Positions 27,391 to 43,316 of a stretch of 59,042 bases of DNA are shown here, piece after piece. The stretch is from positions 1-59,042 of the IMG/VR virus record IMGVR_UViG_3300030110_001528. One strand, 5' to 3'. The position numbers and the translations under genes are program-made. The notes beneath the pieces were generated by a model that searched no databases, had not been told where the DNA came from, and saw only the letters and a list, made by a program, of their open reading frames with translations. This stretch comes from a virus. Taxonomy: Duplodnaviria; Caudoviricetes. Numbering within the stretch: the stretch's first letter is position 1; every line of letters begins with the position of its first letter.

Positions 27391-28548
27391 TCAAGAAAAT
27401 GTTTGTGCTCTCGTGTTGAAATACTCAAACAACTCATCGCTTACTTCTGACCATATGGAAGGATTACCTGCCCTATTCGCTGAAAGCATTGTTACATCTG
27501 TTGAACCGCTTCTAAAAGTCTTTAGAATTTTATAGCTTGCGAACTCGTCACCGCTACCGTATGATCTGCCGTTAGCTTGTTGCGTGTTGGTAACAATGGC
27601 ACCGTCACCAAAACGTGCTCTCATCTCTGAAATTCTACCTGCGATATTTGAACGTGTTGTACCAGTAGCCATCATTAAATCCTGCACTGTCGAACCTTCA
27701 TCGGTTCTACATAATTGATATATTTGATCTAGTCTTGTGCCTTGTCTGTATGGTTGATCGGGTGTTGTTGTCTCTGCTAGGTCATTTTGATATTCTAGAA
27801 AATGATTATCAGTAGTTTTATACAAAGTATAAATTAATTCTATCCAATTCATTATCTTTTTGCATTCAGTAGAACCGCTATTTTGTCTAAATTCTATAGT
27901 GCCTTTATACCTTCTACTTGTTGGATCGGATGGTTCAAAATTCACAGCATAAAATTTTCCACCAATAATAGAATTAAGTTCACTTAAAGTTGTTGCACGG
28001 TTCCAACGTGAACTGCTCGTCTGTCTGTCAATTGGTTTGCAATAGCTGTTATCAGTTCTACTATTAGGTAAAATATTATTGATTAATAATTGGTTCATAC
28101 CGTAACGTGTAGCTACTGTTTTCATTAAGTAAAAAGGCATTGGATCGGCTTTATTTTCGGAATAAAAACCGCTATTACCTTGAACTATATGATTAATTTG
28201 TTCTTTGCAAAAGTCTTCTGGATGCATTTTAGTATTGTCTAGCCATTCAATGCCAAAATGAACATGACCGCCACATTTAGTGGTAATACCTGCGTTAAGT
28301 TCTAGAAGTGCACCTTCAATTGTTAACAATTGATTATTAAGAAACGGACAAATAGCCATTGGCGGTAAAACAATTTCAAAGACTTGTTGGTCACTGCTTG
28401 TTGCGTCTGTGATAACCTTGCACCAATTTATATTATTACTTCTTAAAGCATTGGTAATTACTTCAATTCCACTTTGTCTTCTAGTAGTTGAACTTAAAAC
28501 TATTTCAATCTCTATTCCTATTATTGGTGTTTTATTAAATGTATACAT
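27391..28548 (-). CDS. Putative amidoligase (COOH-NH2 ligase type 2) with a C-terminal winged-HTH-like region
   Basis: GIEIE, EIVLPP, CGGHVH, KFYAVN and GTIEFRQ motifs. Confidence 0.8.
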   Translation of the reverse strand: MYTFNKTPIIGIEIEIVLSSTTRRQSGIEVITNALRSNNINWCKVITDATSSDQQVFEIVLPPMAICPFLNNQLLTIEGALLELNAGITTKCGGHVHFGIEWLDNTKMHPEDFCKEQINHIVQGNSGFYSENKADPMPFYLMKTVATRYGMNQLLINNILPNSRTDNSYCKPIDRQTSSSRWNRATTLSELNSIIGGKFYAVNFEPSDPTSRRYKGTIEFRQNSGSTECKKIMNWIELIYTLYKTTDNHFLEYQNDLAETTTPDQPYRQGTRLDQIYQLCRTDEGSTVQDLMMATGTTRSNIAGRISEMRARFGDGAIVTNTQQANGRSYGSGDEFASYKILKTFRSGSTDVTMLSANRAGNPSIWSEVSDELFEYFNTRAQTFS

Positions 28549-28829: not shown

Positions 28830-29303
28830 TCAAATCTTTACCCGATGAAATGATCTGACCGAATTTTTTCTTGTCACGTTATCAAATTGCTGTGACTTGA
28901 ATTGCGACCAACCAAGTGATTCGTAAAGGTGATTGGTCTTGAGTCCAAAATCCTTGTACCCATCTAAGATACCATTAAAATAATGTGTGCTTGGCGGTAA
29001 CAAATCTTTTTGATTCATTACGTAAGTCATCATACCGTTAACAGTAATCTTGCGATACAAATGCGGGAATCCCTCATAGATATCTAAACTGTTTTCACAT
29101 TCGTCAGTGATCTGCCACACACCAACGGGTAAAAGGTCGTCAGCATTTCTGCTCGGCTCAATGTCAGCAACACCCCTAAACACTAATCTCCAATTAGGAA
29201 TGTAAGCAGAACCTAATTGTTTTGCATTAGGGCATCTCTTAGCCATTTGGGTCAAATTAAGATTTGACCCATAAGCAAAGTATAGTTTATTTTTTTCGTT
29301 CAT
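28830..29303 (-). CDS. Gamma-glutamylcyclotransferase (AIG2-like)
   Basis: YFAYGSNL, RCP and LDIYEG.P..Y motifs. Confidence 0.85.
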   Translation of the reverse strand: MNEKNKLYFAYGSNLNLTQMAKRCPNAKQLGSAYIPNWRLVFRGVADIEPSRNADDLLPVGVWQITDECENSLDIYEGFPHLYRKITVNGMMTYVMNQKDLLPPSTHYFNGILDGYKDFGLKTNHLYESLGWSQFKSQQFDNVTRKNSVRSFHRVKI

Positions 29304-33750: not shown

Positions 33751-34404
33751 TCATTTTCTACCTCCTACTGCATAACCCATAAAATTATACGATTGCCAAA
33801 TTTTAGAAACATTACCCAATTGTTTTAATTCTTCATTCAATTCTCTTTCAGTTTTACAAAACATCGAAACGGCTAACTGGGTATCTTTATCCAGAATCTC
33901 CTGATCCTGAAAATTTGTTCGCTTTTCCTGAACGTGCATCCTGTGTATAAGTGTCTGGATAATTGTGTTGTCAAGATATACTTTCTCAGCGATTAATAAT
34001 ATTGCACCCCGATTGATTCGTTCTTTTATCAACTGGAGTATACGTTTTCTTTTTCCCGATCCGAGAAACTGGAGCGTGAACATAGATATGATTACCGAAA
34101 CATTGTTCGGCTCTGGTAATATATCCTCGATGTCACCCAGTTTAAAATCAAACCCCGAATGGATTGTTTTTAATTTATTTTTATCAATCCCGATGTATTC
34201 ACAGTTTTCAGCTTTTGGCATCTGGGATAGAAACCGACCCGTTGAACACCCGATGTCAATGACTGCACTCTCTGGTTGAGCATATTCACACCCGATTCCT
34301 GTAAATATTTTAGTGAGCGAAGAATAGTTCGGGATTGACAACTCGATATGTTTGTCAAAATCCTCTATTGCTTTAAAATTAAATATTTTATAATGATGTG
34401 TCAT
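33751..34404 (-). CDS. CmoA-like class I SAM-dependent protein (candidate carboxy-SAM synthase)
   Basis: FDKHIELSIPNY, DIGCSTG, FTLQFL, IAEKV and WQSYNF match the CmoA family pattern. Confidence 0.75.
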   Translation of the reverse strand: MTHHYKIFNFKAIEDFDKHIELSIPNYSSLTKIFTGIGCEYAQPESAVIDIGCSTGRFLSQMPKAENCEYIGIDKNKLKTIHSGFDFKLGDIEDILPEPNNVSVIISMFTLQFLGSGKRKRILQLIKERINRGAILLIAEKVYLDNTIIQTLIHRMHVQEKRTNFQDQEILDKDTQLAVSMFCKTERELNEELKQLGNVSKIWQSYNFMGYAVGGRK

Positions 34405-35545
34405 TTTCTTGCACCTGTTTTATTCTAGTTCCGAGCCATTCCATAACATTAATAGACATAGCCCGACCACAGGCTTCATATCTTTTTGATACAGGACATT
34501 CCTCCTTTGATTTGCCACGATAAGGTATTTGCGTGTAATTATCAGGCAAACCCTGAAGCCTTTCACATTCCAATGGCGTTAATCTCCGAACAATAGTGTT
34601 CCGAGCAACGCATGGTTGTCTGTTACCCCCTGTCATTGCGTTAAGCGTGGGAGAAACTTCCTCTTTTCTCACTCTTGGTGCTCCTCCATCAGGCGATCTG
34701 GGTTCAAAAACCACACAGGAAGAATTGTTCGGTTCACGCATCAGGACGGAATGATGATCGTGAGCTGTAATTTTGTACATAGCTCCATTCTGGTTTAATC
34801 CACTACCATTTGACTTTGAATGCCCCGATGCAATAGCAACCAAATCGGTGGCTGACTTGTAATCACGAGCGGCTATTGTTCCTGCGATGTCGTCTTGAGT
34901 GTATTGATCGCTTCGTGTAAGGCGGTGCGTAATTGTTCGGGTATCTTCTTCCCTTTTCTTCCTGCTCGGCGGAGGATTCCATGACAATGCTTTTCCGTCA
35001 AATAAAACCTTCGCTGGATTTCGCCAGTTTCGAGAATGTCCGACAACGAAGATACGCCTTCGCATTTGCGGGATTGCTCTTGGGAATCGTTGTGTTCGTA
35101 TGTATTGAGTGTCAAGAACCCTGTAGGCGAACCCATACCCGCATTCTGCCAACCCTCCGAGGAAGGAAGCAAGGTCTTTTCCTCCGTTAGATGACAAGAC
35201 ACCGGGGACATTTTCCCAAAGTACCCACTTGGGATTAATTCTTTTAATAAGGCGTATAAACTCAAGTGCGAGATTTCCTCTATCCGATTTAACTCCCTCC
35301 CGAAGTCCTGCCACGCTGAAGGTAGCACATGGTGTTCCTCCAACCAAGACATCTGGAGATTTTCCTCCGATGTTTTTCTTTTCGATTTTCGTAAAGTCGC
35401 CATAATTTTTTACCTCTGGGTAATGATGTTTTAAAATAGCAGAACGGAAAGGTTCTATCTCAGACACACCTATACATTCGTATCCAAGAGGTTCCCACGC
35501 CACACTTGCACTCTCTATTCCGCTACATATTGATAAAAATTTCAT
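34388..35545 (-). CDS. DNA cytosine-C5 methyltransferase family (candidate carboxymethyltransferase)
   Basis: SGI motif I, GTPC catalytic motif, WENV, QMRRRIF and RRLTPLECERLQG; motif X reads CGRAM. Confidence 0.9.
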   Translation of the reverse strand: MKFLSICSGIESASVAWEPLGYECIGVSEIEPFRSAILKHHYPEVKNYGDFTKIEKKNIGGKSPDVLVGGTPCATFSVAGLREGVKSDRGNLALEFIRLIKRINPKWVLWENVPGVLSSNGGKDLASFLGGLAECGYGFAYRVLDTQYIRTQRFPRAIPQMRRRIFVVGHSRNWRNPAKVLFDGKALSWNPPPSRKKREEDTRTITHRLTRSDQYTQDDIAGTIAARDYKSATDLVAIASGHSKSNGSGLNQNGAMYKITAHDHHSVLMREPNNSSCVVFEPRSPDGGAPRVRKEEVSPTLNAMTGGNRQPCVARNTIVRRLTPLECERLQGLPDNYTQIPYRGKSKEECPVSKRYEACGRAMSINVMEWLGTRIKQVQENDTSL

Positions 35546-40977: not shown

Positions 40978-41634
40978 AACAGCCTTAACTCACCCCAACT
41001 GAATTTAACTCAGCCAACCTCAACATATCGAAACCCAACTGCCTAAACATGACTAACAGCACCTCTCCCCAAAATAACACAACTCAACTCAACTGCCAAA
41101 ACCCAACCAAGCACATCTCAACATACAACACCTTAACTGCCTGAACTTAACTGATCTTATCGCACACCAACATGACATATCGCACCTCACCCCAACTGCC
41201 TCAACTCAACTCAACTGAACAAAACTTAGCTTACTCCACCCAAAGGAACCAAACCCAATCTTACACAACCCAAACTGCCGTAACATAACAGAACTTAACC
41301 AACCGAACACTACCCGACCCAGACGAAATGCACCATACCTCAACTGCCATACCGAAACGCAAGTTAACTCAACGCAACTCTCCTCACCTCAACATATCAA
41401 CGGAACTGCCTTAACCAAACTTAAATTAACTGACCCGAACTGACCCAAGCAAACCCAACCCCAACTGAACTGCCGAAACATAACTAAGCAAACCTCACCC
41501 CAACTCAACGCAACGCAACTGCCTTAACAAAACCTAACTGACCTGACCCCTCCTCAACACTACACACCAAAACAGGCTGACCACAACGCACTAAAACCTG
41601 CCTAAACATGACTAACAGCACCTCTCCCCAACTT
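40978..41634 (-). ncRNA. Pentamer-periodic guide-like RNA array: about 11 units of (NN-GNU)n-NN-GGCAGUU
   Basis: AACTGCC at 41037, 41091, 41135, 41194, 41273, 41342, 41404, 41468 and 41517, with variants at 40978, 41571 and 41595. Spacings are 5n+4 except one of 62. It lies downstream of a RAMP-like gene. Confidence 0.8.
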
Positions 41635-41962
41635 CTTCATTTCTTCTTCTATATGCTTTGGATTTACACCCATTATTTTTGTATTTTGTTCCATCCTTAA
41701 ATTTTGAGGAAGGATTAATTATAATACAATCGTGAGTGCAATTTTTTCCAGATGGTTCTCCATAAGTTTTTCTATACTCGCAAATCTTTGCTTTTATTTT
41801 TATGTTAGTTTTTATAGAGGTGTCATGTTTATGACCAACAAACTTTAAATTAATGTCAATAGGAACACTAATTAATTCACAACCATCTTCTTCTCTAGTT
41901 TCTTGTATTTCATGGTCAGAAATTAATTTATTTATTTCCTTTAAAATATTTTTATCCATCAT
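41612..41962 (-). CDS. Hypothetical protein between the partner gene and the array
   Basis: 116 aa, AT-rich, GGGAGAG RBS; its last codons lie in array sequence. Confidence 0.55.
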   Translation of the reverse strand: MMDKNILKEINKLISDHEIQETREEDGCELISVPIDINLKFVGHKHDTSIKTNIKIKAKICEYRKTYGEPSGKNCTHDCIIINPSSKFKDGTKYKNNGCKSKAYRRRNEEVGERCC

Positions 41963-42004
41963 TCACTCTCCCATTGATAAAATATGTGTCTTAATGAAGT
42001 GAGG

Positions 42005-42538
42005 CTATACAGCCTCACTCTTCACACTTTCTGATTCTAATGAGTCAGCAATTTCTGATAGTGAATCAATATCAATACCTTTTAAAGCACAGATACCATC
42101 ATGTCTATTAATCCATGCTCTTAATTCTCTACAGGCTTGACGACATAATTCAGCTACAACTTCTGGGTTGTTTAAATCAAATCTTTGATAGCCACCACCT
42201 TGAGCACGATTATCTATAGGTGAAATAAATGTAGGAAACCGAACAACTTTTTCATCTACAACTGTAATTGAGTCAGATATATCTATTGTTTCAGTCGGTA
42301 AATCCTTATATTGAAATGTAATTTTACAACCTGTAGCAAATTGTCTAGCTATTTGAATACGTTGCTTTAAAGCCATCTTTGCATCATCGTCAAAACCGAA
42401 CAATTTATAAACAGGATGATCTGGATTTCCTTGTAGCCAATCGACAAACTCGGCAGGAACATAACTGTTCCTGCCTGTCTGGTTAAGGTAATCGTTAATT
42501 ATTTTTTCACGATCCTTCTTACCAAATCTTTTTGCCAT
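42005..42538 (-). CDS. Partner protein of the RAMP-like gene
   Basis: PAEFVDW...PDHPVY..F.FDD...A..QRIQIARQ; start MAKRF at 42538, right after the upstream stop. Confidence 0.7.
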   Translation of the reverse strand: MAKRFGKKDREKIINDYLNQTGRNSYVPAEFVDWLQGNPDHPVYKLFGFDDDAKMALKQRIQIARQFATGCKITFQYKDLPTETIDISDSITVVDEKVVRFPTFISPIDNRAQGGGYQRFDLNNPEVVAELCRQACRELRAWINRHDGICALKGIDIDSLSEIADSLESESVKSEAV

Positions 42539-42539
42539 A

Positions 42540-43316
42540 CTATGCAACTTCCTTCAGAAGATCGGCTCTTTTAACTCTTTCTTCCTGCATTGCTTCGTAT
42601 AATTGATGGCTAGTATTATCATGTGACTCAATCTCTGGATTTTCCAAAGCAAGTTTCTGACAAGTAGCACCTTCTTCTTTGGTCAACTCATCCCAAAGTT
42701 TTTGGTCTGAAGTTTCCTTGAGTTTATAACCACCCATAGGACCACCTTTCTCTATTCTCCAATCACCAAGACCACATAAAGTTCCTGCATTAGTCAAAAG
42801 AGAAGTAATATTCAATTGACTAAAAGTAGGACTAATATATCGAATAGTAACCTCAGAACACCATCTAGGTAGTTTAGCTCTAGTGCGAATATCGGGAGTT
42901 CTATTTATATCAGAAGAACGAACCACAGACATATTCATATAAGGTTTACCCCAAATATTAATATGTTCACCTACAACGTAGATACCACGATTAATACCTG
43001 CTTTAGTAACACCTTCAGTTTCAAGGGCAGAAGTTGCCATACCTCTCTTGATACCTGTAGAAGGAAAACTAAGATAAGAACCATCTTGACCATTGATGTA
43101 ACAACTATCCACAAATTCTTCTTCGGGATTGTGCTTGATATCCTTCTTCTGTGCGGCTGTTTTTTTAGCGGCTCCCATAAACAACGTACTCATAGCCTTG
43201 AGTGACATTGAATTATAAATTAAAGGACCTGTACCAACAATCTTCAATTTTATTGTTGATTGCTTTAGTCTTTCAACAGTTAATCCTGTTGATTTAGTTT
43301 CTTTTTTAATTGGCAT
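42540..43316 (-). CDS. Stand-alone RAMP/Cas7-like RNA-binding protein
   Basis: KIVGTGPLI (beta1), FPSTGIKRGM (P..S.KG-type motif) and a Gly-rich loop GLGDWRIEKGGPMGGY. Confidence 0.75.
   Translation of the reverse strand: MPIKKETKSTGLTVERLKQSTIKLKIVGTGPLIYNSMSLKAMSTLFMGAAKKTAAQKKDIKHNPEEEFVDSCYINGQDGSYLSFPSTGIKRGMATSALETEGVTKAGINRGIYVVGEHINIWGKPYMNMSVVRSSDINRTPDIRTRAKLPRWCSEVTIRYISPTFSQLNITSLLTNAGTLCGLGDWRIEKGGPMGGYKLKETSDQKLWDELTKEEGATCQKLALENPEIESHDNTSHQLYEAMQEERVKRADLLKEVA

Follow-up and report, generated by a model that had tools for sequence, protein, structure and literature searches.

A predicted VIPR guide in an uncultivated marine phage whose variable bases spell a ParB/GmrSD_N catalytic motif

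The minus-strand stretch at positions 41521-41577 of a tailed phage genome (IMG/VR record IMGVR_UViG_3300030110_001528, whose 59,042 nucleotides are here called the window) appears to encode one guide, or vrRNA, of a phage-encoded Viral Interference Programmable Repeat (VIPR) system. The guide likely silences a gene with a ParB/GmrSD_N motif, either of a competing element or of the host. A probability of about 0.8 is given to this reading, which depends on the following features, with lengths in nucleotides (nt) or amino acids (aa) and with NN standing for two variable bases:

40978..41602, minus strand: vrRNA array, about ten abutting units of 8-15 NN-G-K-T pentamers with GGCAGTT punctuation, about 620 nt in all
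41521..41577, minus strand: guide unit, a GCCTGTT leader (41577-41571, degenerate punctuation) followed by ten pentamers
41517..41523, minus strand: GGCAGTT punctuation, which closes the guide unit (last pentamer AAGGC) and opens the next unit
42005..42547, minus strand: candidate accessory (vap-like) gene for a 180-aa protein whose fold has no recognised match, the constant companion of vipr and the array in related loci
42540..43316, minus strand: vipr, predicted from profile and model matches to encode a 258-aa minimal RAMP (Cas7-like) protein

In passages of the preprint bioRxiv 10.64898/2026.04.26.720920, VIPR is described as a phage-encoded system made up of the minimal RAMP protein Vipr, an accessory gene and vrRNAs. 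The hallmarks of Vipr are an RRM core, a glycine-rich loop and a thumb, while the vrRNAs comprise 9-16 pentamers, each with a conserved GGY and a variable NN; the scaffold may also be 'a related consensus', with the variants NNNGG, YNNNG and NNNNG. The NN letters pair with double-stranded DNA and one base is skipped, usually at the codon wobble position, and the guides have no self-target. The same passages distinguish seven types, some with 'staggered arrays' of 1-nt overlap (fig. S18 legend), and assign Escherichia phage SUSP1 and a Pseudomonas fulva prophage to type II, in which an invariant 3' tail follows the repeats. Passages of a companion text describe one protomer per short RNA segment, with bases flipped, and name R138, D177, W178 and R179 as the GGY-contacting residues of SUSP1 Vipr (bioRxiv 10.64898/2026.04.26.720927). 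The natural targets reported in the passages on targeting are mobile elements (bioRxiv 10.64898/2026.04.26.720920, 10.64898/2026.10.15.759431). Several guides of the SUSP1 array are reported to converge on one element. A SUSP1 vrRNA, for example, is wobble-aligned to the active-site codons of a satellite recombinase, and escape would require amino-acid changes in the active site (passage of bioRxiv 10.64898/2026.10.15.759431).

One link between the window and these systems is the 258-aa protein. A profile of 34 homologues matches PDB entry 36pp_D, 'SUSP1 Vipr protein', with an E value of 2.7e-4. The match spans the thumb Arg and the G-loop G-D-W-R, and R146, D185, W186 and R187 of the window protein align with the four RNA-contacting residues of SUSP1 Vipr named above. 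The AlphaFold2 model of the protein (pLDDT 79, pTM 0.75) has Csm3, type VII Cas7, Cmr and gRAMP proteins as its top Foldseek matches in the PDB (best E 3.2e-6, probability 1.0). No family was found in Pfam, PADLOC or NCBIfam, and in PHROG the protein falls in phrog_4652, annotated as of unknown function. Judged by its profile and its model, the protein is a Vipr homologue. A search for its relatives returned 354 at E <= 0.001, among them a 50% identical homologue in the Tranquillimonas rosea chromosome; the cluster names of close relatives gave no clue to a host.

The array, vipr and the gene for the 180-aa protein also travel together. A helicase-based search recovered 80 related viral loci, of which 28 have the same array type. 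In 59 of them the stretch from one flanking gene to the other is complete; vipr and the 180-aa gene are present in all 19 of these that have an array, and neither occurs in any of the 40 that lack one. It follows that the module was inserted between core replication genes. The preliminary description of this DNA, made from its letters alone, had taken the unit for a guide, and both the nearby Vipr homologue and this co-occurrence speak for that interpretation. The helicase and the Cas4-like nuclease were considered as VIPR accessory genes and rejected, since both are present in the 40 loci that lack VIPR. The flanking genes are shared, but vipr, the 180-aa gene and the array are missing, in L038-L081 (other than L059) and in L016 and L018, whose helicases are 84-85% identical; such relatives provide natural VIPR-null comparators. 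The 180-aa protein has only 27 close homologues among those found and belongs to no family in four libraries. Its AlphaFold2 model is weak (pLDDT 60) and gave no fold match, and a search of the Atlas returned only viral hypothetical clusters.

The anatomy of the array fits that of a guide array. GGCAGTT or a near copy cuts it every 44-79 nt, the successive unit lengths being 79, 49, 64, 62, 69, 79, 59, 44 and 54; the exact heptamer occurs 12 times in the window, nine of them within the array, and shuffled whole windows average 6.3. Over 40980-41630, same-base autocorrelation peaks at lag 5 (0.50) and lag 10 (0.46); the values for lags 1-4 and 6-9 are 0.22-0.31. The minus strand of the array is rich in G+T and only 8% C. 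Parsed in a fixed register, its units have the 8-15 pentamers given above, and a pool of 1072 pentamers was drawn from the distinct units of regular length (5n-1 nt) in the arrays of the window and 28 related loci. In this pool, base use is near-uniform at positions 1 and 2, G makes up 84% of position 3, T 49% and G 35% of position 4, and T 90% of position 5. The 5n-1 spacing itself holds in 175 of 220 units. Between different units the NN letters are near-random. Among homologous units the invariant fraction is 0.88 and 0.86 at positions 1 and 2, compared with 0.83, 0.77 and 0.91 at positions 3, 4 and 5; conservation of NN is thus no lower than that of scaffold positions 3 and 4, and the NN letters are not neutral spacers. 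Unit families recur in varying order and number, as cassettes would, and the clade has about 115 distinct guides.

Other identities for the array were rejected. No minus-strand open reading frame (ORF) of at least 50 aa runs through it, and the one short plus-strand ORF lies at its edge, so it is not a coding region. A scan of the whole window returned no Rfam match, which speaks against a known RNA family, and the array RNA folds no better than its shuffles (z = +1.0), which speaks against a structured RNA. Blastn found no match to the array in GenBank phages. The guides have no self-target in the phage genome at three or fewer mismatches, and at skips of 0-3 none beyond those of shuffles. 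One unit (41474-41411, minus strand) has four G runs of at least three bases with G-quadruplex-like spacing, which may be a by-product of the G-rich scaffold.

The guide unit is the first full unit of the array. Its pentamers, at 41570-41521 on the minus strand, are TTGGT GTGTA GTGTT GAGGA GGGGT CAGGT CAGTT AGGTT TTGTT AAGGC, and AGTT (41520-41517) comes directly after them. The leading dinucleotides are TT GT GT GA GG CA CA AG TT AA, exactly the string that had been read from this strand beforehand, and the degenerate peptide proposed with it, [FL]VV[DE]G[HQ][HQ][RS][LF][KN], follows directly from that string when it is read in frame. The core GT GT GA GG CA CA AG is retained as the first unit in all 24 related loci where the unit was found. 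In the guide versions of these relatives the half that reads VV[DE]G[HQ][HQ][RS] is constant and the 3' half varies, giving [IM]A[GA][IM][KN], [IM]AT[IM] or [KN]AS[IM]T. Judging from these sequences, the variation is protein-like and keeps a ParB-like peptide (hydrophobic, Ala, small, hydrophobic, Lys/Asn). In the first unit of L022, L026, L028, L031 and the L004-L012 group, the pentamer after AG has one extra base (6 nt), after which the register is regained.

Matches to the guide were sought in large sequence collections with patterns that skip one base, of which the full version was TTxGTxGTxGAxGGxCAxCAxAGxTTxAA, with 20 fixed bases. Metagenome contigs gave 14 exact matches. Eleven of them fall within open frames of 84 aa or more, in frame 0, with the reading [LF]VVDGQ[QH]RL[KN]; ten of the eleven read [LF]VVDGQQRL[KN], and their proteins also carry FQR..VW. 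All five metagenome ORFs submitted to Pfam are GmrSD_N (formerly DUF262, PF03235), with 66-108 bits against a cut-off of 33.2, and the other six in-frame matches were classed by motif only. In PADLOC the best family was NsnA for four of four tested ORFs, with PD-T4-2_A second. A gapped search of this kind, followed by annotation of the hits, had been put forward in the preliminary description as the way to check the motif, and its outcome speaks for that reading; the check is to some extent circular, since whatever pattern spells an abundant motif is bound to match that family. Genome contigs gave two matches to the full pattern, one of GmrSD_N/DUF262 type and one in frame by chance.

Shorter patterns extended the matches to viruses. 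Without the first dinucleotide (nine of ten NN), three of three viral matches read VVDGH[HQ]R[LF]K, in frames of 489-1112 aa. An 18-base pattern common to five of the relatives' guide versions matched viral contigs 25 times, every time in frame, whereas a control with the same dinucleotides in reversed order matched once. Twenty-four of the 25 read VVDGHHR[WV]A[AG][IM]. When two of these 24 were examined with Pfam, L099 scored as ParBc_2 and L104 had no family. The 25th match, L123, is a GmrSD_N+GmrSD_C gene, also on a viral contig. The VVDGHHR ParB-like motif of the 24 viral contigs L099-L122, and of L125-L127, stands in very long viral open frames (about 400 to more than 2400 aa), and these genes are candidate targets in competing phages.

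Based on these observations and on analogy with SUSP1, a mechanism may be proposed. The minus strand carries the whole module: vipr (42540-43316), the candidate 180-aa accessory gene (42005-42547) and about ten guides in a staggered array (40978-41602). The array would be transcribed and processed into guides, on each of which Vipr would form a filament with one protomer per pentamer. The scaffold G-K-U would be buried by Vipr and the two variable bases presented, so that they could pair with double-stranded DNA, every third target base being skipped. The ten NN pairs would in this way specify the 20-base pattern given above, which encodes the conserved catalytic-core motif of ParB/Srx-fold proteins, including ParB-like nuclease domains and GmrSD_N/DUF262. 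Because the skipped bases would fall on codon wobble positions, one guide could cover many synonymous variants. The guide's most likely role would be to silence transcription of a motif-bearing gene, whether that of the host or one carried by a competing mobile element (a phage, satellite or prophage island).

Several observations weigh against this interpretation or limit it. The published scaffold is GGY, whereas that of the window is G-K-T, and just 35% of the pooled pentamers have the second G. The window also lacks the structured 3' tail or pseudoknot of type II VIPR; its 5n-1 spacing fits staggered arrays with 1-nt overlap, however, so the missing tail argues against type II and not against VIPR. 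Among the sequencing runs that contain the locus, none is on record as RNA. Three of the metagenome matches and one of the genome matches look like chance, and one in-frame metagenome match, L083, reads FVVDGQHRLK in a protein with no Pfam family. The full 20-base pattern had no match in viral contigs, and its exact matches come from mixed metagenomes, including an activated-sludge record, whereas the phage itself occurs in marine runs. The guide version of L024/L025 agrees with the GmrSD gene of L123 at 22/22 NN bases, of which only four were free beyond the 18 fixed by the scan, and about 0.5 such matches are expected by chance by our own estimate. In viral contigs neither the 18-base core of the most widespread unit nor a relative's full 26-base pattern had a match, and the 18-base version of the latter had one, in a non-coding frame, attributable to chance. 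No skip rule stood out in tests on local sets of 731 kb and 326 kb, in one of which high scores at skip 3 were probably due to unmasked array remnants. Finally, the guide unit is the only one of the tested units with matches, and the motif is so abundant that exact matches neither pinpoint nor name the natural target.

The same evidence has to be set against other readings, the most serious of which differs from the above only in the target. The guide may be directed at a defence gene of the host or of a prophage, a GmrSD/DUF262-type (type IV restriction enzyme, NsnA/PD-T4-2_A-like) gene whose silencing would protect methylated phage DNA. GmrSD-family enzymes attack modified DNA, and genes for a C-5 cytosine DNA methylase and for a second methyltransferase are present in the phage. 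The ten exact matches in DUF262 context all combine FQR..VW with DGQQRL, and those tested are without exception GmrSD_N in Pfam (5/5) and closest to NsnA in PADLOC (4/4); the gene that a related phage's guide matches at every NN base is a complete GmrSD_N+GmrSD_C gene. That gene, however, is itself on a viral contig, and the other matches in viral contigs are not to defence genes but to ParB-like DGHHR motifs of large phage proteins. No match was found in an identified host. By the time a lytic phage enters, defence proteins are in place, so that blocking their transcription would be of little help, and the natural targets in the published passages are mobile elements. This reading is considered unlikely. 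A broader form of it, likewise doubtful, would have the first guide of a lytic marine phage aimed at the invariant VVDG(Q/H)(Q/H)R codons of GmrSD/DUF262 restriction genes and of ParB-like nuclease domains alike; one guide would disable many alleles, and relatives would retune the 3' half to local alleles. The link to escape from modification-dependent restriction, which had been raised at the outset, is speculative.

It is much less probable that the unit is a genuine VIPR guide whose likeness to ParB/DUF262 arose by chance, its true target lying elsewhere and possibly in non-coding DNA. Many units were examined with a degenerate two-of-three reading, which invites the spotting of motifs, and abundant motifs gather matches whatever the purpose of a guide; the restriction of matches to one unit fits this account as well. 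TG dinucleotides, which as codons give Cys, Trp or stop, are frequent in the forward reading of other units, so wobble alignment to coding DNA need not hold for all guides. Against chance, a 20-base pattern is expected to match about once in some 10^12 positions by our own arithmetic, and the search gave 11 in-frame matches to one motif, ten of them DUF262-type. The reversed-order control, the retention of the core as first unit in the related loci and the variation of the 3' half within a ParB-like peptide all run counter to it as well. The least credible reading, with very little probability left to it, is that the array holds no guides and is instead a protein-binding RNA with TRAP-like triplets and 2-nt spacers, a primase-site or origin DNA element, or a decaying pentanucleotide microsatellite in the replication module. 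The array does lie between recombination and replication genes and has an extreme strand asymmetry (minus strand rich in G+T). GTT/GGT triplets recall phage primase recognition sites, and a 5-nt period recalls TRAP sites. This reading does not explain why the array accompanies vipr and the 180-aa gene and not the replication genes, being absent from 40 of 40 loci that have the same flanks without vipr, nor why homologous units conserve their NN positions, which neutral spacers would not; the anatomy, moreover, fits the vrRNAs of the published passages, with their 9-16 pentamers and variable NN. Once the Vipr homologue and the co-occurrence of the module were known, the TRAP-like RNA, the primase-site or origin element and also an ops-like element were dropped as candidates.

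The reading as a VIPR guide is also favored by comparison with known systems. Like the described VIPR loci, the window locus is phage-encoded and combines in one place a Vipr protein, which is a small RAMP with a G-loop D-W-R and a thumb Arg, one small accessory gene, and pentamer vrRNAs (here with a degenerate middle G). Its guides have about 8-15 pentamers (9-16 in the published systems) with two variable letters each, and the phage has no self-target. The one-base skip at the codon wobble position may be shared too, since the matches obtained with skip-one patterns are mostly in frame. The units abut through the 7-nt GGCAGTT with 5n-1 spacing, like the published staggered arrays. In contrast to these systems, the window protein reaches 258 aa, with a C-terminal helical extension, where the SUSP1 chain has 202 aa; no fold is recognised for the accessory protein; and in these uncultivated marine phages the system sits as an insertion within the replication module. 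The guide resembles the SUSP1 active-site guide in its wobble alignment to catalytic-core codons. The suggestion in the preliminary description that guides aim at conserved active-site codons agrees with a passage of bioRxiv 10.64898/2026.10.15.759431, in which this mode of targeting by vrRNAs is already argued. The window guide differs from the recombinase guide in that its motif belongs to the ParB/Srx-fold superfamily, which is spread over unrelated elements and is not specific to one satellite family.

Class 1 CRISPR systems share the RAMP fold, the best Foldseek matches being Csm3, type VII Cas7 and Cmr subunits, and likewise have one protomer on each short RNA segment, with bases flipped. 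The window array, in contrast, has no CRISPR-length repeats and no Rfam CRISPR family, no cas genes were found among the ORFs scanned, its period is 5 nt with two read bases and not 6 nt with five, and its guides are hard-wired cassettes and not acquired spacers. The RNA bound by Bacillus TRAP has triplets separated by 2-3 nt. The window array is similar in its 5-nt period, with a constant triplet and a 2-nt spacer. Its 'spacers', however, are conserved among homologous units and spell coding sequence, and its partner protein is a RAMP.

VIPR has been described only in bioRxiv preprints of 2026, which deal chiefly with the systems of an E. coli phage and a Pseudomonas prophage. The present locus adds a well-populated clade from uncultivated marine phages, distinct from the described systems in its G-K-T scaffold, its tail-less staggered arrays and guide units that recur like cassettes. 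The guide also gives a concrete target prediction, the catalytic motif of the ParB/GmrSD_N superfamily; word searches within two VIPR preprints found no mention of ParB, DUF262 or GmrSD. Should an immunity gene prove to be the target, VIPR would serve for counter-defence as well, beyond the conflict between phages and satellites.

As a virus record the window is complete (59 kb) and has terminal repeats, and the phage is present in marine runs. Almost all of its genes are on the minus strand, and the array lies in a recombination and replication module. In minus-strand order, the upstream part encodes a Sak4-like AAA_24 protein, a 200-aa protein of unknown function and the proteins of 258, 180 and 116 aa, and leads to the array; a ResIII/DEAD helicase, a Cas4-like exonuclease, a Toprim primase-helicase and the C-5 DNA methylase follow. 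The vipr gene is thus located two genes upstream of the 116-aa ORF that neighbors the array, with the 180-aa gene next downstream. Two further features mark the 5' edge of the array:

41612..41962, minus strand: 116-aa ORF, in this window only, that separates the accessory gene from the array and belongs to no family
41598..41631, minus strand: 34-nt repeat at the array 5' edge, an exact copy of 41039-41072 (the end of the penultimate unit)

The 116-aa ORF has no convincing counterpart among the 80 related loci, the sole match being 32% identical over 73 aa in L015, and its last codons extend into array-derived sequence, the 34-nt repeat. The unit upstream of the guide unit, which is the first in the array, is truncated. 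Together, the 34-nt copy beside this window-specific ORF and the truncated unit look, from the sequence, like a recombination scar in the array. In relatives such as L003, L019, L036 and L037, the 180-aa gene ends in a GC-rich hairpin and a T run, directly followed by the first GGC[AT]GTT; the window has a hairpin near 41999-42018, without the T run.

The C-5 cytosine DNA methylase is encoded at 34388-35545 and the second methyltransferase at 33751-34404. Elsewhere in the window, an Amidoligase_2 protein (27391-28548, minus strand) is close to a GGACT (gamma-glutamyl cyclotransferase-like) protein (28830-29303, minus strand), and these two together with both methyltransferases may hint that the phage modifies DNA or protein.

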